Assembly (NCBI GenBank): GCA_944391705.1
Contig: CALXUN010000002.1
Location: 8,279-72,278, forward strand
Direction: 5' to 3'
DNA: 64,000 nt
Source of the DNA: an uncultured Alphaproteobacteria bacterium
Lineage (GTDB): Bacteria > Pseudomonadota > Alphaproteobacteria > RF32 > CAG-239
Notes under the pieces: model-generated
What the model saw: the letters and a program-made list of their open reading frames with translations, nothing else
Told to the model about the DNA's origin: nothing
Databases searched by the model: none
Program-made: the position numbers and the translations under genes
Part shown: one piece after another, positions 44,226 to 56,121 of the stretch
How positions within the stretch are numbered: position 1 is the stretch's first letter
Layout: the number at the start of each line of letters is the position of its first letter

Positions 44226-44393
44226 TCTTCTTTCTGTTTTTTATAAATTGGTTTGCTATTATGCTATGCCAATCCTTAACAATTTTCAAACATTTTTTTA
44301 GTTTTGCATAAATAACAAAATCTGTCTTTTTATGTTGAAAAAATCAGAAATCCGGTTATGATGTAATTAAACAATCAGGAGGTGCTGATAATT

Positions 44394-44834
44394 ATGACTT
44401 ATACTGAAACCCTCGAAGCCAACGGTTATATTTTAAAACTAACCGAAGAACAGAAAATTATTTTCTTAAAAGCTCTGGCTTATATGGCAAAAATCGACGG
44501 CCATCTTGACGAAGAAGAAATCAAATACATTAAAGATGTTGCAACAAATTACCACATTACCCAGCCGGGCCGGATTTTTGAATTTAAAAACGAAGAAGAA
44601 ATTTTAAATGAAATCAAAAAGTTGGGTAACCGCCGGATTTATCTGGAACTGATTAAAGAACTGTGCCTTCTTGGACATTCCGACAGCGATTTGAGCAATG
44701 ATGAAGTTGCCTTTATCGGCAATGTCGGCAAAGCCACCGGCATTGAACTTGAAAAAGTTGAACAAATCAGCAATTGGGTCATTGACAAACTTATGTGGCT
44801 TGAACAGGGAAAAATCATTTTTGAAGACGCCTGA
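44394..44834 (+). CDS. TerB-like / DjlA-N-like domain protein
   Basis: Two helical repeats with conserved D-G/E patterns (LKALAYMAKIDGHLDEEE; LIKELCLLGHSDSDLSNDE). Start set at the ATG at 44394 after AGGAGG. Confidence 0.45.
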   Translation: MTYTETLEANGYILKLTEEQKIIFLKALAYMAKIDGHLDEEEIKYIKDVATNYHITQPGRIFEFKNEEEILNEIKKLGNRRIYLELIKELCLLGHSDSDLSNDEVAFIGNVGKATGIELEKVEQISNWVIDKLMWLEQGKIIFEDA

Positions 44835-48876: not shown

Positions 48877-48915
48877 CCAACCCCCGCATTGGGATGCGGG
48901 GGTTGGTTTGATTTA
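48877..48915. terminator. Strong bidirectional terminator
   Basis: AACCAACCCCCGCATTGGGATGCGGGGGTTGGTTT. Confidence 0.8.
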
Positions 48916-50823
48916 TTGTTTTTTAGTTGGTGCTTTGGTTACGTAGTTGTGATTACTGTTATAATCATAACATAGCTCAAAGCATCCATCTGTAACCATA
49001 ACATATGGAACAGAATTGGGATTTGGATTTTTCTTACCGGGTGTCCAGTGGTTATCCTCAGGCTTGGTGAAACATTCATATTCAGCGGTATGGTATTGTC
49101 CATCCGGGCACAATTGACATTTGTAACAAGTGTCATTACCTGCATATCCAACTGTACTTTCATAACCATAATATGGTGAATTATAGCATTCCGAACGGTT
49201 TGTCGTAATACCAGGTCCGGTCGGACAGGTTTTGGCTTTACATTTGTAACAACTTACATCACCTGAGCCGTTTTCATTAGCTTCAATAATGCTTGTATCC
49301 AATTCCCATCCGCCACTTTGGCCGCATTCTGAAACATCTTTAACAAAGCCGTCTATGCAAATACATTTATAACACTGTCTATCACCCCGATAAGAATCAC
49401 CCAATGTTGAACTCATATTCACGCCACAGAACCTTAGCACTGAATTCATACCAAATTCGTCTGTTGCGCATGACTTAGTTTCACATTGATAACACCCTGC
49501 CTCATCGGTATCCGTACCAAGCTTCCAGCCCTTTGTTCCGGTTTTCCCGCAATCAGCTGCCGTTTTTGCATAACCATCCGTACATTGAAGCGTTACGCAT
49601 TTATAACAACCCTTAACTGTAGCGTGTTCTTGAAGCGTTTGTCCGACAAAACAGGCTTGGAGCCGATTTGCAGAATAACCGGCAGGACAATCTTTAACAC
49701 ATCGATAACATCCTGTATCGCCGGCATAAGCCGTCGAATGATATTCCGCCTTATAATCACTACGGCAAATACCTAAATCTCCGGCAGTATATCCTGTAGG
49801 ACAGGATTTGGCTGCACAAGCACCGCAAACAATTACTTTATTGCCGCTGACAACCTTTTTAGTGTATATATTCCATCCGGCGCTCCCTGAATCACCGCAA
49901 TCTTCAACTTTTTGATACTTGGAAGAAGAACCAGCCGGACACACATCATCGTCGGTTTCTTCTTGACCTGGACAATACATATAACTTGAATCAAACGGGC
50001 ATTTAACCCCGGTTGTTCCGTCATCACATTTTGTTGCCTTGACATAACCAAGGGTTGCACAATCCGTAACCGTTGTTTGCGTCACATTGCACCAATATGC
50101 TTCCAGATTAATCTGTCCTTCTTCGCTGCAGGTTTCTGCACTGCAAAGATAGCAATTATCATGACCGTTATAAACCTGTTCGACCAGCGTTGTACAACCA
50201 TCTGTCCGGGAGCTGCATTCTTCGGTCGAATAGCTGTCATCGCAAATACAATAAGGATACCAGCGGCTGCCGTCCGGTTCCTCGCAATAATCCGTACCGC
50301 TTGGTTCTTTTAAACCTCTCTCATCGCAGCTATACGGATAAACAGTTCGGGAACAAGCACATTCCTCATATCTGATAGATCCATCAGCAGGGCTCCTACA
50401 GGAATCTCCGCTGCCGGATGCATTAGTATAGTCAGCACAACTTTCATACGGATAACGAGCCGGATTGCAAATGGTTTCAGAACCGGCACAGCCGCACACC
50501 GAATTAAAAGTTCCGGTACAAATATATTTACCATTTTCCAAATCCAAAACATTATCGCTGTTACAGCTGCAACGATAATATGTTTTGTCATTATAAATAC
50601 AAGTTTGCTCCTGATAACCTTCCGGACATGGCGTTGTCCGATCATATCCCTGACATCCCGTACCAAGCCAGCTGCTGTTGTCAATACAACCGTCACCATT
50701 TAAAACGCCGGGCAAAAAGCAGACTTTGGCTTCTGCATCTGCTGCCGCGATTAGTATAACCAACAGTAAAAATTTCGCCAATGTCCGCATACTCTTAAGC
50801 CCTTCAGATAACTTGCCGTTCAT
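48913..50823 (-). CDS. Secreted, extremely Cys-rich repeat protein, 636 aa
   Basis: Signal peptide MRTLAKFLLLVILIAAADAEA. About 7 tandem modules of 35-45 aa of the form C-[PT]-x-G-[YF]...G..GCY[KRQ]C... (GCYRCVKDCPAGY, GCYKCVTLQCTDGY, GCYQCETKSCATDEF, QCYKCICIDGF, SCYKCKAKTCPTGPG, TCYKCQLCPDGQY). Own promoter and an AGGAAAG RBS. Confidence 0.7.
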   Translation of the reverse strand: MNGKLSEGLKSMRTLAKFLLLVILIAAADAEAKVCFLPGVLNGDGCIDNSSWLGTGCQGYDRTTPCPEGYQEQTCIYNDKTYYRCSCNSDNVLDLENGKYICTGTFNSVCGCAGSETICNPARYPYESCADYTNASGSGDSCRSPADGSIRYEECACSRTVYPYSCDERGLKEPSGTDYCEEPDGSRWYPYCICDDSYSTEECSSRTDGCTTLVEQVYNGHDNCYLCSAETCSEEGQINLEAYWCNVTQTTVTDCATLGYVKATKCDDGTTGVKCPFDSSYMYCPGQEETDDDVCPAGSSSKYQKVEDCGDSGSAGWNIYTKKVVSGNKVIVCGACAAKSCPTGYTAGDLGICRSDYKAEYHSTAYAGDTGCYRCVKDCPAGYSANRLQACFVGQTLQEHATVKGCYKCVTLQCTDGYAKTAADCGKTGTKGWKLGTDTDEAGCYQCETKSCATDEFGMNSVLRFCGVNMSSTLGDSYRGDRQCYKCICIDGFVKDVSECGQSGGWELDTSIIEANENGSGDVSCYKCKAKTCPTGPGITTNRSECYNSPYYGYESTVGYAGNDTCYKCQLCPDGQYHTAEYECFTKPEDNHWTPGKKNPNPNSVPYVMVTDGCFELCYDYNSNHNYVTKAPTKKQ

Positions 50824-50912: not shown

Positions 50913-51440
50913 CTAACCGTACTTTGCCTTCAACTGATAAATATATTCAATCACATCATCGCTGTCCCACTTGGCGCTGCCGCGGATACGCCCGATTTCT
51001 TCACCGTTTTTGTTAATCAGAACCGTATGCGGACTGGTAAAAATTCCCAAATCGGAAGCCACGGCCCCGTTTTCATCAACATAAAAATCGACATCCGGCG
51101 CTCCGTAACGTTTCAAAAAACGTTTTTGTTCGGCTACCGTTGCCCACTCTTCATTAGGGGAAATCAAAAGCAATTTGATGCCGTTTCCTTTTACGGCCTT
51201 ATAAAAGCCGTTAAGACTTTTAAGTTCTGCCAGGCACGGACCACAGTCGCGCGACCAGAAAACCGCCACCACAAAATCGCCTTTAAAATCCGAAAGACGG
51301 TAGTTTTTGCCGCTTTCATGAATAATTTTATGCGCCGGCGCCGGCCGCGGCTTGTCATAAATATTAACGCTGTCCTTGGCATAGGCCGGAGCCGCCAGTA
51401 AAAACAGAATAAAAGCCGCTTTCAAAACAAGTTTCAACAT
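50913..51440 (-). CDS. TlpA/ResA-like periplasmic thiol-disulfide oxidoreductase (thioredoxin fold)
   Basis: Signal anchor MLKLVLKAAFILFLLAAPAYA. WSRDCGPC CxxC active site. Start set at the ATG at 51440. Confidence 0.75.
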   Translation of the reverse strand: MLKLVLKAAFILFLLAAPAYAKDSVNIYDKPRPAPAHKIIHESGKNYRLSDFKGDFVVAVFWSRDCGPCLAELKSLNGFYKAVKGNGIKLLLISPNEEWATVAEQKRFLKRYGAPDVDFYVDENGAVASDLGIFTSPHTVLINKNGEEIGRIRGSAKWDSDDVIEYIYQLKAKYG

Positions 51441-51529
51441 CCCTGTTAAAATCCTTAATTTTACTTTGTATTTTACAATCGTTTTGAATATAATTATCAT
51501 CAATGTAAATACAACAAAAAGGTTAAAAA

Positions 51530-51664
51530 ATGAGATATGTTTTTAAATTTTTTTCAATTCTGCTGCTTGCCACGGCAATTCTCGGCACAACCGCCTGCGG
51601 CAAGGTTTCCGCTCCCGTTCCGCTTGAAGACAGCGGCTATCCGCACAGTTACCCGCGGCGTTAA
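51530..51664 (+). CDS. Tiny putative lipoprotein of 44 aa; not in the ORF track
   Basis: MRYVFKFFSILLLATAILGTTACGKVSAPVPLEDSGYPHSYPRR. Hydrophobic signal plus a Cys with a loose lipobox. Sits immediately upstream of the vWA gene. Confidence 0.3.
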   Translation: MRYVFKFFSILLLATAILGTTACGKVSAPVPLEDSGYPHSYPRR

Positions 51665-51681
51665 ATAAAGGATATCAGACC

Positions 51682-52368
51682 ATGAATGAACAAAAAAAAC
51701 CAACTGATGATACCATTCCTTATGTCGAATTTGCCGACAATGCCAATGAACGTACCCCCTGTGTGCTGGTTTTGGATTGCTCCGGCTCCATGCGCGGTGA
51801 ACCCATAAAACAGTTAAACGCCGGCTTAAGCGCTCTGGAAAAAGAACTGAAAGAAGACATTGATGCCAGCTCACGCGTTCAGCTTTTAATCATTAAAGCC
51901 TGCGGCAAAGACGAAGCCGTCATCAGCTCGGACTGGGTTGATGCCATGAACTTTACCGCGCCGGTTATGGAAGCCGGCGGTTTAACGCCGCTTGGCAAAG
52001 CCATGGAACTGGCTTTACAGAAAATCGAGGAACAAAAATGCCTTTACGACAGCTGCGGCGTTACCTCCAAACGTCCCTGGATATTTTTAATCAGCGACGG
52101 GGAACCCACCGACTACGGCTGGGAGCAGGCTGCCGAAAAATGCCGTTATGCCCAGCAGAATAAAAAAGTTATTATCCATGCCGTCGGCACTCAGGGGGCC
52201 AATTTGGAAAAGCTGGCAAAATTTTCCCTGATGTCGCCCAAACGCTTAACCGGGCTGAAATTTACCGAATTTTTCTTATGGCTGAGCCGCAGCGTTTCCT
52301 GTATTTCCAAAGCCGCCCCGAACGCGGATGATTTGCTTGAGGACATTAACGACTGGAATGATGAATAG
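51682..52368 (+). CDS. vWA-domain protein (TerY-like)
   Basis: MIDAS VLVLDCSGSMRGEP, ...T..., ISDGEPTD. RBS AAAGGA. Confidence 0.75.
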   Translation: MNEQKKPTDDTIPYVEFADNANERTPCVLVLDCSGSMRGEPIKQLNAGLSALEKELKEDIDASSRVQLLIIKACGKDEAVISSDWVDAMNFTAPVMEAGGLTPLGKAMELALQKIEEQKCLYDSCGVTSKRPWIFLISDGEPTDYGWEQAAEKCRYAQQNKKVIIHAVGTQGANLEKLAKFSLMSPKRLTGLKFTEFFLWLSRSVSCISKAAPNADDLLEDINDWNDE

Positions 52369-53107
52369 AAAACAGAACATACATATTGTTGCCGCCAGCG
52401 TAACCGGAACATATCACCGTGCCAAAAATCTTCCCTGTCAGGATTTTCATGCTCATGCCTGCCGGGGGAACAAGCTGGTTGCGGTTGTTTCCGACGGCGC
52501 GGGTTCGGCAAAATATGGTAAAATCGGTGCCAAAACCGTTTGCAGCACTTTATGCGATATTCTGATTTCCTGCCCGCTGGACGATATCCGCCAAAAAATT
52601 ATCGACGCTTTGGAAATTGCCCGCCAAAAGCTGATATATCACCGTTTTAACAAAACCAAAAGTGAAAACGGACTGGTTGATTTTGCCGCCACGGTTGTCG
52701 GTGCCGTCTATACCGGCAGCCGCGGCATATTTTTTCATATCGGTGACGGGGCCGCCATAGCTCTGGGAGATACAGCACAAAGCACCGTGGTTTCGCGCCC
52801 GGAAAACGGTTTGTTTTCCTGTGAAACTTATTTTTTTACCATGGACGACTGGAAAGACAGCCTGCGCTTCACCCCGTTTGAAAAAGCGCAAAGCCTGATG
52901 TTAATGACCGATGGTGTGACCGGTTTTGCTTTCACCAAAGATTACGACTGCCTGGAAAACAGGTTTATAGAACCGATTAACCGCTTTTTACGGGCTGAAC
53001 CCAACCGCCGCAAAGCCGTCCGTGCTTTAAACAACACATTGGGCACGCCGCGCGCCTGCCAATTAAATCCCGATGACAAAACGCTTTTATGGGTCGGTCT
53101 GAAATGA
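52358..53107 (+). CDS. PP2C-family Ser/Thr phosphatase
   Basis: VAVVSDGAGSAKYG and FHIGDGAAIAL metal-binding Asp motifs. Start overlaps the end of the vWA gene. Confidence 0.7.
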   Translation: MMNRKQNIHIVAASVTGTYHRAKNLPCQDFHAHACRGNKLVAVVSDGAGSAKYGKIGAKTVCSTLCDILISCPLDDIRQKIIDALEIARQKLIYHRFNKTKSENGLVDFAATVVGAVYTGSRGIFFHIGDGAAIALGDTAQSTVVSRPENGLFSCETYFFTMDDWKDSLRFTPFEKAQSLMLMTDGVTGFAFTKDYDCLENRFIEPINRFLRAEPNRRKAVRALNNTLGTPRACQLNPDDKTLLWVGLK

Positions 53108-54579
53108 ATCAAAACATAACTTCACAGGAAGCGGAATTTTTGTATTTTAACGCCATTTACGGCGACGGGCATTTTGAGCGTGAAAAGCTGGGCGAACTCT
53201 TAAACAAAGGTGGTGCTGCCGGCAAAATATATCGTGATGTCATTCACCCCGGGTTGGTAGCCAAAATCTTTCATGACCGCAGCAAAAGCCACACCAACCG
53301 CCAGAAGCTGGAAGCCATGCTGCACAACCGCCCGAACATTCCGCCGATTGTATATGACGGAAAAACTTATGTACAGATTGCCTGGCCGGAAGCGGTTTTG
53401 GAAGATGACGACGGCTTTTGCGTCGGCTATCTGATGCCGCTGATTAATATGAACGAGGCCGTTTCCTTAGACCACCTGATGCAAAAGGCCGTCCGTAAAA
53501 AACTGGGGCTTTCCGAAAGTTACAGCAACCGGCTGTATGCCGCTTATAATGTGGCCTCTATGGTTGCGGCATTGCACAAATGCGGCCATTACATTGTTGA
53601 CTTGAAACCGGCCAATGTTTCCGTTTACAAAGAAAACATGATTGTTGCCATGTTTGACTGCGACGGTTTTTCCATTAAGGGCGAAAAAGGGCGTTATCCG
53701 GCAGAATTTGTCAGTGAAGAATATATTTATCCGGAAGGAATGCAGCAAAATTGTGAGGAAATGGGCGAAGAACAGGATAAATTCGCTTTAGCCGTCATCA
53801 TATTCAAACTTTTAAACAACGGCATTCACCCCTTTTCCGGCACGCCGCGCAAATCTGGCAGCGAAATGCTGACCATTCAGACGCGGATTGAACAGTATCA
53901 TTACGCTTACGGCCTGTGGCCGGATTCTTATCAGGCGCCTAATCCTTACAGCATACACAATTATTTTGATAAAAAAACTTTGGAATTGTTTGACCGTGCC
54001 TTTTTAAAAGGCCAGAAACGTCCGTCTGCCAAAGAATGGCAGGAACACATGGAATATCTTTTCCGCAATTTAAAAACCTGCAAACAAAACCCGGATCATG
54101 TGTATTTTACATCCAGAGGCTGCGGTTTATGCGCCATTGAGGAAAAATTTAAGCAGAACATGGCCGCCGTCAAAGAAGAAAAAGCCATGCCGGTCAAAAT
54201 CCGCGGACTGGAAATATCCGAGCTTTCAACCGAAAAAACCGAACGTTTAAAACAAGAAAAACGCTTGAAGTTCATTAAACTGAACAAACTGACCTTAGCC
54301 GGCATCGTGCTATATCTTTTATTTTTCGGCAGCCTGTCGTTTATCCTAAAACCGGCGAAAGAGTTTCTGACATCGGGCGGTTATGCGCTGCAGCTGATTA
54401 TGATGGCCCTGCTTGTTAAAGTATTGTATACGGCAGGAAATCGCTTACAAGCCACTCTTCCGCTTTTAAAAAACCAGTCTTTGCTTAACATGCTTAAAAT
54501 TTATGCCCTGATTAACATCATTGTCGCATTTATTATCATAAACAATCTCGGTTTTGAAATTTTCCGGCCGGCCGGTTAA
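53104..54579 (+). CDS. Hanks-type Ser/Thr protein kinase with C-terminal coiled-coil and 2 TM helices
   Basis: Gly loop GGAAGKIY, VAKIF Lys, catalytic loop YIVDLKPANV, FDCDGF (DFG-like), YPE. ATGA start-stop overlap with the PP2C gene. Confidence 0.75.
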   Translation: MNQNITSQEAEFLYFNAIYGDGHFEREKLGELLNKGGAAGKIYRDVIHPGLVAKIFHDRSKSHTNRQKLEAMLHNRPNIPPIVYDGKTYVQIAWPEAVLEDDDGFCVGYLMPLINMNEAVSLDHLMQKAVRKKLGLSESYSNRLYAAYNVASMVAALHKCGHYIVDLKPANVSVYKENMIVAMFDCDGFSIKGEKGRYPAEFVSEEYIYPEGMQQNCEEMGEEQDKFALAVIIFKLLNNGIHPFSGTPRKSGSEMLTIQTRIEQYHYAYGLWPDSYQAPNPYSIHNYFDKKTLELFDRAFLKGQKRPSAKEWQEHMEYLFRNLKTCKQNPDHVYFTSRGCGLCAIEEKFKQNMAAVKEEKAMPVKIRGLEISELSTEKTERLKQEKRLKFIKLNKLTLAGIVLYLLFFGSLSFILKPAKEFLTSGGYALQLIMMALLVKVLYTAGNRLQATLPLLKNQSLLNMLKIYALINIIVAFIIINNLGFEIFRPAG

Positions 54580-54732
54580 AATATTTTTCACACCAATCCT
54601 TGCCTAAAACCCGCAGAATAGCTATTTAGTTTCTTTAAGGAAACTATAGGTATCTAAAGTGCCTACTTTTCTTTTTGCAAAAAAACGCATAAATAAATTC
54701 TAACAGAATTTTTTAGTTTTAAGGAAAAAACA

Positions 54733-56121
54733 TTGAAAAAATTAAATCCCATTATTTTATCAGGCAAAGAAGTCCTGCCCTTAATTGAAGGCGGCAAAGG
54801 CATTAACGGCAGCAACGGATACAGCTCCGGCGCCTGGGCAAGAGAAAACTGCGTCGGCACGTTTTCGGCTGTCAGCCCGGATACACTTGACAATAACGGC
54901 AACGTTATCATCGAAACATTTAAGAAGAAAATCCGTGCCGAACGCCATGAAGAAATGGTGCAATATGCCATTCAGGGCGGCATAGACCAGGCAAAAGTGG
55001 CACATGAAGTTTCCGGCGGCAACGGCCGCATCCACATGAATATGCTTTGGGAAATGGCCGATTCCGAACGGATTATTGCCGCCATCTTGGAAGGAAGCAA
55101 AGGCCTGATCCACGGTGTCACCTGCGGTGCCGGGCTGCCTTATCATTTAGGTGAGCTGGCCTCAAAATTCAAAGTTTATTATTACCCGATTATCTCCTCG
55201 GCCCGGGCCTTTCAGGTATTGTGGAAACGTGCCTATTCCAAATGCTCGGAATATTTGGGCGGCGTTGTTTATGAAGATCCGTGGCTGGCAGGCGGACACA
55301 ACGGTTTATCCAATGCCGAAAACCCCTTAGAACCGCAGTCGCCATACAACCGGCTGGTTGAATTACGTAAGCTCCTGCGTGAACTGGGGCTTGAAAAAAC
55401 ACCGATTATCATTGCCGGCGGAGTTTGGAAATTAAGTGAATGGGAAGATTATATTGACAACCCGGAAATCGGTGACGTTGCCTTCCAGTTCGGTACACGC
55501 CCGATGATTACCAAGGAAAGCCCGATAAGTGCAGCCTGGCAAAATGTTATGATGCACGTCAAAAAAGGCGATGTCATTTTACAAAGATTCAGCCCGACGG
55601 GGTTTTTCTCCTCGGCCATTAAAAACACTTTCTTAGAAAAACTGATTGAACGTAAAAAAGGCGAAATCGCTTTCAAAAACGAACCGGACAACGAATATTC
55701 TCATGCTTTGCCCATGAATGCCAACCGTACGGTTTACATCAAACCGGAAGACGCCGAAAAAGCCGACAACCAAATCAATGCCGGATTAAGCGTTATTCAG
55801 GAAACCCCTGATCAAACGGTTGTCTTTATGAGCCAGGAAGACTACAAAAAAATGAAGCAAGACCGTGCCGAATGCGTCGGCTGTTTGTCGCAGTGCCAGT
55901 TTTCAACCTGGTCGCGCGCTAACGGTACCACCGGCAAACTGCCGGATCCGCGCACATACTGCATTCATAAAACGCTTTATGAAGTCGGCCACGGCGGCAG
56001 CGTTAAAGACCATTTGCTGTTTGCCGGCCACCAGGTTTACCGCTTTGCAACCGATCCGCTGTATCGCAACGGTATTCCGACAGTAAAAGAACTGATTGAA
56101 AAAATCAAAGTCGGCGAATAA
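54733..56121 (+). CDS. FMN-dependent NMO (2-nitropropane dioxygenase/enoyl reductase-like) family oxidoreductase with C-terminal extension
   Basis: TIM-barrel motifs GVTCGAGLPY and IIAGGVW. TTG start with an AAGGAAAAAA RBS. Confidence 0.55.
   Translation: MKKLNPIILSGKEVLPLIEGGKGINGSNGYSSGAWARENCVGTFSAVSPDTLDNNGNVIIETFKKKIRAERHEEMVQYAIQGGIDQAKVAHEVSGGNGRIHMNMLWEMADSERIIAAILEGSKGLIHGVTCGAGLPYHLGELASKFKVYYYPIISSARAFQVLWKRAYSKCSEYLGGVVYEDPWLAGGHNGLSNAENPLEPQSPYNRLVELRKLLRELGLEKTPIIIAGGVWKLSEWEDYIDNPEIGDVAFQFGTRPMITKESPISAAWQNVMMHVKKGDVILQRFSPTGFFSSAIKNTFLEKLIERKKGEIAFKNEPDNEYSHALPMNANRTVYIKPEDAEKADNQINAGLSVIQETPDQTVVFMSQEDYKKMKQDRAECVGCLSQCQFSTWSRANGTTGKLPDPRTYCIHKTLYEVGHGGSVKDHLLFAGHQVYRFATDPLYRNGIPTVKELIEKIKVGE

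Follow-up and report, generated by a model that had tools for sequence, protein, structure and literature searches.

Gene triads encoding a von Willebrand factor A (vWA) protein, a PP2C phosphatase and a Hanks-type Ser/Thr kinase are widespread: they occur in Escherichia coli, are carried by Ter plasmids and restriction islands, and also form a defence system. Here, we analysed a triad of this kind located, together with a small lipoprotein gene at its head, at positions 51530–54579 (+ strand) of a 64,000-nt stretch of contig CALXUN010000002.1 from an uncultured alphaproteobacterium (hereafter, "the window" is this whole stretch). Judged by sequence, its closest characterised relative is the yegL-pphC-yegI module of E. 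coli. The genes of E. coli B strains are arranged in the order yegL-pphC-yegI, with an ATGA overlap between the phosphatase and kinase genes. YegI is an active, Mn2+-preferring, two-pass inner-membrane kinase with a cytoplasmic kinase domain; its activation proceeds by oligomerisation-dependent autophosphorylation with second-order kinetics, a D-S-D sequence that replaces the DFG motif is indispensable, Ser-162 is the essential phosphoserine of the Ser-160/Ser-162 pair, and PphC dephosphorylates the kinase (bioRxiv 10.1101/819920, 10.1101/303594).

The TerY-P triad comprises a TerY-like vWA protein, a PP2C phosphatase and a Ser/Thr kinase fused to a C-terminal zinc ribbon (PMC11090510). Its description from Ter plasmids and CoCoNuT/McrBC islands goes back to Anantharaman et al. 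2012, as described in PMC11090510 and PMC4978471, and the definition of the triad applied below is that of these two secondary sources. TerY-P-like modules also protect against T7-like phages and constitute a defence system of Gao et al. 2020 (PMC7699616, PMC11090510); the kinase of the validated defence module carries a C-terminal OB-fold (PMC11090510).

We lean, with somewhat more confidence than doubt, towards reading the window locus as an operon of lipoprotein, vWA, PP2C and kinase genes whose products make up a reversible switch based on Ser/Thr phosphorylation, of the YegL-PphC-YegI ("TerY-P triad") family. It consists of four consecutive, closely packed and co-directional open reading frames (ORFs), encoding a lipoprotein (44 aa, 51530–51664), a vWA protein (228 aa, 51682–52368), a PP2C phosphatase (249–259 aa, stop at 53107) and a kinase (491–496 aa, stop at 54579). 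A gap of 17 nt separates the stop codon of the small ORF from the vWA ATG at 51682. The vWA stop codon, TAG at 52366–52368, is overlapped by two in-frame PP2C start codons at 52358 and 52361 (overlap of 8–11 nt), and the PP2C stop codon, TGA at 53105–53107, forms an ATGA overlap with the kinase ATG at 53104. The lipoprotein ATG is preceded by an AAAGG ribosome-binding site at a distance of about 9 nt and by a promoter-like site, TTTACA-17-TATCAT (51472–51500, + strand), at a distance of about 30 nt. The latter was found by a consensus scan (10 of 12 positions matching) in the 89-bp intergenic region that separates the operon from a divergently transcribed TlpA-like gene, and this consensus match makes it a putative promoter. 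The AAAGG site and a TATAAT/TATATA box 30–45 nt upstream of the small ORF recurred across the related loci described below. Scanning the operon revealed no convincing terminator-like site inside the four-gene run. To judge from these junctions, the locus is a tightly coupled four-gene operon.

The first protein of the triad (51682–52368, + strand) is a YegL/TerY-like vWA protein with an intact metal-ion-dependent adhesion site (MIDAS). It matched the Pfam VWA family PF00092 (E 6e-7, above the gathering score) and was similar over its full length to E. coli YegL (41% identity, E 2e-50); identity to the annotated TerY proteins of enterobacterial Ter plasmids was about 30–31% over about 82% of the length. 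The MIDAS is formed by D32-x-S34-x-S36 (51775–51789), T102 and D139, of which D32, S34, S36 and D139 did not vary in the alignments of the clade and were shared by E. coli YegL, and T102 was replaced by Ser in one sequence. A standard vWA fold was obtained with AlphaFold2 (pLDDT, for predicted local distance difference test, 78.6), and the Foldseek matches of this model were vWA/I-domains. Since neither the vWA nor the PP2C protein contains a hydrophobic segment, both are probably cytoplasmic. Residues 12–26 of the vWA protein, IPYVEFADNANERTP (window positions 51715–51759), were invariant in the clade, partly conserved in E. coli YegL and predicted to be disordered (pLDDT <50), and the last helix bears the invariant serines S202, S204, S206 and S209. 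The disordered segment and these serines are candidate docking or phosphorylation elements.

The second protein (52358–53107, + strand) is a PphC(YegK)-like PP2C phosphatase of 249 aa when counted from the ATG at 52358; other in-frame starts are located at 52361 and 52328. It matched PP2C_2 (PF13672, E 3e-38) and was similar over its full length to E. coli PphC (27% identity, E 4e-15) as well as to the PP2C region of a Ter-plasmid protein (E 4e-10). Its sequence had no match in the PDB. The acidic residues D29, D46, D130, D185 and D239/D240 were conserved in at least 97% of 83 sequences, E. coli PphC included, and D46 is the residue that was mutated to obtain catalytically dead PphC (bioRxiv 10.1101/819920, 10.1101/303594).

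The third protein (53104–54579, + strand; 491 aa) is a YegI-like Hanks-type Ser/Thr kinase. It matched the C-lobe part of the Pkinase profile (PF00069, E 4e-10), and its kinase domain spans approximately residues 30–320 (53191–54063). Residues G36/G37/G40, K54, E70, D166-L-K168-P-x-N171, D185-C-D187 and P210-E211 were invariant or nearly so. The kinase domain is followed by a zinc-knuckle motif, C326-x5-H332-x7-C340-x2-C343 (54079–54132), whose four residues were all invariant and are predicted to be zinc ligands; AlphaFold2 modelled this knuckle as a small β-hairpin. Beyond the motif, one helix precedes a long juxtamembrane helix, after which come three hydrophobic segments (residues 398–416, 426–444 and 461–479; 54295–54540), also modelled as helices (mean pLDDT of the kinase 82.6). 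The alignment to E. coli YegI (28% identity, E 1e-27) extended through the C/H/C/C motif, and the kinase of the Ter plasmid was a more remote match (E 4e-9). An exhaustive kinase search yielded 614 family representatives at 50% identity (E<1e-30), which aligned to query residues ~20–350 alone; residues 350–491 found matches within the clade only. The C/H/C/C motif was present at approximately residue 315–330 in 142 of 149 family representatives, and most representatives possessed a hydrophobic segment 60–90 residues past the motif, followed by C-terminal parts of widely varying length. By this comparison, the window kinase is a short member of a family with the architecture kinase, zinc knuckle, transmembrane segment and variable tail.

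Much of this had been anticipated by an earlier note on the same DNA. Reading the junctions confirmed the coordinates of its ORFs and start/stop overlaps, its assignment of the three proteins as vWA (with the MIDAS intact), PP2C phosphatase and Hanks-type kinase was borne out, and the three predicted hydrophobic helices agree with the C-terminal membrane anchor that it gave the kinase. Its term "TerY-P-type triad" was right at the family level, as indicated by homology both to YegL/PphC/YegI and to the TerY, PP2C and kinase proteins of Ter plasmids, together with the zinc-ribbon-like motif. The note had also pointed out a 44-aa lipoprotein ORF missed by the ORF track, and this ORF proved to be a real conserved gene. 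The three triad genes co-occurred in every related genome examined.

The resemblance to the E. coli module covers all three proteins, the gene order vWA-PP2C-kinase and the ATGA overlap, which is as in strain REL606. The window kinase is homologous to YegI through the C-x5-H...CxxC motif, has a D-x-D sequence (D185 and D187) in the place of DFG and carries a membrane anchor, here predicted, after the kinase domain. Nevertheless, the two kinases differ in several respects. Three transmembrane helices are predicted in the window kinase and YegI has two; the long cytoplasmic C-terminal tail of YegI is missing (491 versus 648 aa); and the catalytic loop is a canonical D-L-K-P-x-N, compared to VGDxxQxS in YegI. 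In the DFG-equivalent segment, D-C-D-G-F-S (residues 185–190, window positions 53656–53673), the D-S-D serine and the neighbouring phosphoserine of YegI are replaced by the invariant Cys186 and Gly188. Moreover, the window locus has a lipoprotein gene at the operon head and a divergent TlpA-like gene, and it belongs to the core genome and is very conserved, whereas expression of the E. coli genes is barely detectable and yegJ interrupts them in K-12.

Measured against the TerY-P definition, the locus has a vWA protein with a MIDAS, a PP2C phosphatase from the same operon and a kinase with a C-terminal zinc-ribbon-like motif for which zinc binding is predicted. The frequent, non-obligatory association of TerY-P triads with Ter or DNA-processing/restriction modules was not observed within the window. 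On the Ter plasmid used for comparison, the PP2C and kinase proteins are encoded beside TerY-TerX-TerY, and homology of TerY, PP2C and kinase to the window proteins was detectable. Identities were about 25–31%, however; there is one vWA gene in the window versus three or four on Ter plasmids, and the window PP2C protein is short (249 versus 544 aa). The window locus also differs in being chromosomal and vertically inherited, in a housekeeping context with no Ter, DNA-processing or restriction neighbours.

A more distant comparison is offered by Sulfolobus ArnB (PDB 8s05), which alone among solved structures resembled the vWA protein at the sequence level (E 1e-3) and was also one of its fold neighbours. 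ArnB is a vWA protein phosphorylated by the Hanks-type kinases ArnC/ArnD and offers a precedent in which the output of a kinase/phosphatase pair is a vWA protein. The Arn system is archaeal, involves an FHA/zinc-ribbon partner protein instead of a kinase-borne zinc knuckle and employs another type of phosphatase. We treat this very distant relation as an analogy, not as membership in the same family.

The gene at the operon head (51530–51664, + strand) encodes a signal peptide and a lipobox, TTAC, followed by a mature peptide of 21 aa, CGKVSAPVPLEDSGYPHSYPRR. Among relatives, the lipobox took the form of LSAC, LAGC and similar variants. Of 78 clade species, 77 had the gene directly 5' of the vWA gene; its product had an invariant core S-G-[YF]-[PA]-H-x-Y-P, and the consensus of the mature peptide was C-G-[KR]-x-[SA]-x-P-x-P-x-E-G-S-G-[YF]-P-H-x-Y-P-[RK]-x. 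Residues S35, Y37, P38, H39, Y41 and P42 were invariant in an alignment of 21 sequences. The signal peptide drifts freely, in contrast to the strongly conserved lipobox Cys and mature peptide. A profile search recovered 345 protein clusters, all of approximately 40–50 aa; all names given among them were "hypothetical protein", from alphaproteobacterial metagenome-assembled genomes (MAGs). No Pfam family matched the lipoprotein. Homology to LptM was considered and dropped, as searches of Pfam and NCBIfam up to E 10 gave an insignificant LptM_cons match alone (E 0.48), which falls on the signal peptide and lipobox. From the conservation pattern of its sequence, the 44-aa ORF is a real, previously unannotated and clade-restricted lipoprotein family.

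To assess conservation of the locus, we compared 78 species-representative loci with flanks of ±10 kb, in which the window proteins were located by tblastn. The relatives found by the contig scan belonged almost all to the close clade; distant contexts were represented by two marine loci, Azospirillum, E. coli and one Ter plasmid. The homologues came from uncultured gut and rumen Alphaproteobacteria under record titles such as "Proteobacteria bacterium CAG:495", "uncultured Azospirillum sp. MGYG-HGUT-03859" and "Acetobacter sp. 46_36", a clade that we take to be the group named RF32 in GTDB. The triad was complete in 75 loci and cut by contig ends in the three others. It was colinear in 75 of 75 cases, and since the same order was found in all the complete loci, the arrangement is shared far beyond chance. 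The conserved unit consists of the TlpA-like gene on the opposite strand, followed by the lipoprotein, vWA, PP2C and kinase genes; the outer flanks rearrange. For example, on a 1.88-Mb contig (L001) encoding a kinase 63% identical to that of the window, the TlpA-lipoprotein-vWA-PP2C-kinase-FabX-like unit was intact, and the outer flanks were wholly different, with cmk and rpsA on one side and pilus genes on the other.

The vWA protein was the most conserved protein of the neighbourhood. Its median identity to the window protein across the 78 species was 86%, compared to 74% for both the FabX-like protein and MiaB, 66% for the VTT-domain protein, 61% for the kinase, 55% for PP2C, 54% for FolD and 51% for the TlpA-like protein. 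At conserved residues, identity at the third codon position ranged from 0.33 to 0.42 for all genes and was 0.38 for the vWA gene. Recent horizontal spread was rejected as the source of the high vWA identity, its synonymous sites being as saturated as those of the neighbouring genes. As third-position identity of the vWA gene is like that of the other genes, the high identity of the protein is due to purifying selection. The constraint on it within the clade exceeds that on enzymes of tRNA modification and folate metabolism. The triad is a vertically inherited, fixed core-genome feature of this gut/rumen alphaproteobacterial clade.

Beyond the clade, the triad was found bare, in Azospirillum brasilense (42/36/35% identity), E. 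coli and two marine MAGs. The slot of the lipoprotein gene directly 5' of the vWA gene is occupied in the marine MAGs by a gene for a conserved 195-aa membrane protein (L085, 9341–9928; L086, 9330–9917), which has two C-terminal transmembrane segments and no match in Pfam. The neighbours at both marine loci encode GIY-YIG, DUF559 and KAP NTPase proteins, the last with an EF-hand, a setting that resembles a defence island. The kinase of one marine MAG ends in an SH3_3 domain.

In the switch that we favour, a cue from the membrane or envelope would activate the membrane-anchored kinase, and the PP2C phosphatase would oppose and reset it. The cytoplasmic vWA protein would be the output, either as a substrate of the kinase or as an adaptor that uses its MIDAS metal site to bind a partner, phosphorylated or acidic, and would link the switch to conserved cellular machinery; such contact is suggested by the very strong purifying selection on the protein. 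The clade-specific 21-residue lipopeptide, and possibly the TlpA-like thioredoxin, would serve as periplasmic-side accessories of a kinase with no sensor domain of its own. Given the position of its gene and a kinase that lacks a periplasmic domain, a role of the lipopeptide as a kinase accessory is the most attractive hypothesis. Comparable arrangements exist in NlpE-CpxA, RcsF-Rcs and MgrB-PhoQ, where a membrane kinase whose periplasmic domain is small or missing has a tiny envelope protein encoded with it or acting on it. Those kinases, unlike the window kinase, are histidine kinases, and the systems have no sequence relation to the one described here, so the parallel is by analogy alone.

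Several points weigh against such a switch. Neither YegI nor PphC has a known substrate in any organism, making vWA phosphorylation an assumption, and as of 2026 the literature assigned no physiological role to the E. coli module, which makes the output step the weakest link of the model. The positions of the YegI phosphoserines Ser-160 and Ser-162 are those occupied by Cys186 and Gly188, with an invariant Ser190 two residues further on, and activation may consequently differ in mechanism from that of YegI. Both the number and the topology of the kinase transmembrane helices are predictions. Co-transcription of the lipoprotein gene with the triad is a prediction from the 17-nt spacing and the conserved adjacency. 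Finally, the association with the lipoprotein and TlpA genes is limited to a single clade, and shared ancestry alone could explain it.

This last point leads to the alternative that survives best, a purely cytoplasmic/membrane phospho-switch to which the genes for the lipoprotein, the TlpA-like and the FabX-like protein have no relation, their adjacency being due to clade ancestry alone. We regard it as a possible reading, although one that would surprise us. It accords with the finding that in E. coli, Azospirillum and the marine relatives none of these three genes lies beside the triad, and with the FabX-like gene being missing or displaced in 15 of 75 clade species. TlpA-type proteins, in addition, have well-known independent roles in cytochrome maturation. 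It is harder to reconcile with the lipoprotein gene, which lies on the same strand 17 nt from the vWA start with no terminator-like site after it and has been kept in all species but one despite repeated rearrangement of both outer flanks. Furthermore, the lipoprotein family and the C-terminal membrane module of the kinase were both found in this clade alone; one locus with a kinase gene cut by a contig end (L078) is uninformative on whether the membrane module tracks the lipoprotein.

The opposite extreme gives the accessory a specific task: the 21-residue lipopeptide would be the periplasmic input or co-sensor of a sensor-less, membrane-anchored YegI-type kinase, possibly coupled to envelope redox through the TlpA-like protein, and this minimal pair of lipoprotein and kinase would control an essential, extremely conserved vWA hub in the cytoplasm. 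We advance this only tentatively and consider it rather unlikely. If true, it would make YegL-PphC-YegI/TerY-P a core envelope-to-cytoplasm signalling pathway in gut Alphaproteobacteria, whose members carrying this locus are uncultured.

A third alternative holds that the triad is a stand-alone TerY-P anti-phage defence system of the type of Gao et al. 2020, acting through phosphorylation-dependent abortive infection or restriction; we judge this improbable, and the operon is most likely not a phage-defence cassette. The domain composition is identical, with the same three domain types in one operon, modules of this kind do protect against T7-like phages (PMC7699616, PMC11090510), and the distant marine relatives lie beside GIY-YIG, DUF559 and KAP-NTPase genes. 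However, the window kinase has a zinc knuckle and predicted transmembrane helices instead of the OB-fold (PMC11090510). The locus is not patchy and lies outside any defence island: in 75 of 75 species its place on the chromosome is fixed and surrounded by housekeeping genes, and there are no nuclease, helicase or McrBC genes among its neighbours. Purifying selection on the vWA protein is stronger than on MiaB, the opposite of the turnover typical of defence genes, and the only "viral" records with the module are chromosomal fragments. When all proteins of the locus were scanned with PADLOC, the vWA and PP2C proteins had no match and the kinase had weak generic matches alone. The failure of the PADLOC TerY model to match the vWA protein is a weak point against defence, since this narrow model also misses E. 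coli YegL and plasmid TerY and weakly matches the vWA protein of marine locus L085 alone.

The remaining alternative, that the triad is the phosphorylation arm of a Ter (tellurite/metal stress) system that includes a TerB-like gene 7 kb upstream, is very hard to sustain: TerY-type vWA, PP2C and kinase genes do flank terZABCDEF on Ter plasmids and a gene with a TerB Pfam match is present at 44382–44834, but a tblastn search of the 64-kb window with a complete Ter cluster (AP022275.1) matched the triad alone and detected no homologue of TerZ/A/B/C/D/E/F/W. Within this window, the operon is not part of a tellurite-resistance system, and the link to Ter made in the earlier note finds no support.

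With the defence and Ter alternatives set aside, the reversible phosphorylation switch that we prefer has a clade-specific form, and this form is what is new here: the module belongs to the core genome, its vWA protein is exceptionally constrained, a lipopeptide gene of its own heads the operon, and a TlpA-like gene is stably paired with it. Its fixation in the core genome, the constraint on its vWA protein and its dedicated lipopeptide suggest that a module of this family can serve housekeeping signalling, beyond conflict and stress functions alone.

The TlpA-like gene (50913–51440, − strand; 175 aa from the ATG at 51440, with the mechanical ORF extending to a TTG at 51503) encodes a TlpA/ResA-like periplasmic thiol:disulfide oxidoreductase with an N-terminal signal sequence and a CGPC active site. 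It matched Redoxin and AhpC-TSA (E 1e-16 to 1e-17) and, below the equivalog cut-offs, the NCBIfam models TlpA (1e-17) and ResA (1e-16). Immediately beyond it, on the same strand, lies a gene for a Cys-rich secreted protein of 636 aa (48913–50823, − strand), with no match in Pfam, NCBIfam or PADLOC. The earlier note had raised the possibility that these two genes form with the triad an envelope-stress or secretion-linked signalling island. Both are indeed present on the opposite strand, and the TlpA-like gene was divergently adjacent to the triad in 73 of 75 clade species, so an envelope link is possible; the Cys-rich gene, found near the triad in just six of 78 species, does not belong to a shared island. 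Counterparts at its position in close relatives were far shorter (437 and 368 aa), and the Cys-rich protein therefore appears to evolve fast.

The gene with the TerB match (44382–44834, + strand), which the earlier note had connected to the triad, is a housekeeping-block gene. The Pfam TerB match covers residues 20–59 alone, and plasmid TerB had no match to this ORF. The gene was always found in a block, next to miaB and then p330 (for an uncharacterised protein of 330 aa), yggT, yggU, folD and a VTT-domain gene, and it moves with the miaB/yggT/yggU/folD block; 17 of 78 species had it at a distance of up to 10 kb from the triad, with both sides and both orientations represented.

On the other side of the operon, 153 nt 3' of the kinase gene, a FabX-like flavoenzyme of the NMO family is encoded (54733–56121, + strand; 462 aa), with a weak match to NMO (PF03060) and promoter-like sites ahead of it at 54512–54582. 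It was similar to PDB 7e1q and related entries (E 3e-19); 7e1q is Helicobacter pylori FabX, a [4Fe-4S]/FMN dehydrogenase-isomerase of unsaturated fatty-acid synthesis (PMC8626469). About 150 additional residues, among them the sequence ECVGCLSQC, extend the C-terminus of the window protein. The gene was located immediately 3' of the kinase gene in 60 of 75 species and was elsewhere or absent in the rest; it is probably not part of the switch.

A phage or mobile origin of the module was also considered and rejected, as scanning phage GenBank records and IMG/VR yielded chromosome-like fragments of the same gene order alone. Two records filed as viral, MT836238.1 ("UNVERIFIED: Bacteriophage sp.") and IMGVR_UViG_3300024268_003428, carry the TlpA-lipoprotein-vWA-PP2C-kinase(-FabX-like) unit and are most likely bacterial fragments misfiled as phage (L090 and L091 in our set). 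The locus was also found with full synteny in two GTDB species genomes labelled "Lachnospiraceae bacterium" (L009) and "uncultured Eubacteriales bacterium" (L019), which suggests mislabelled or contaminated bins.

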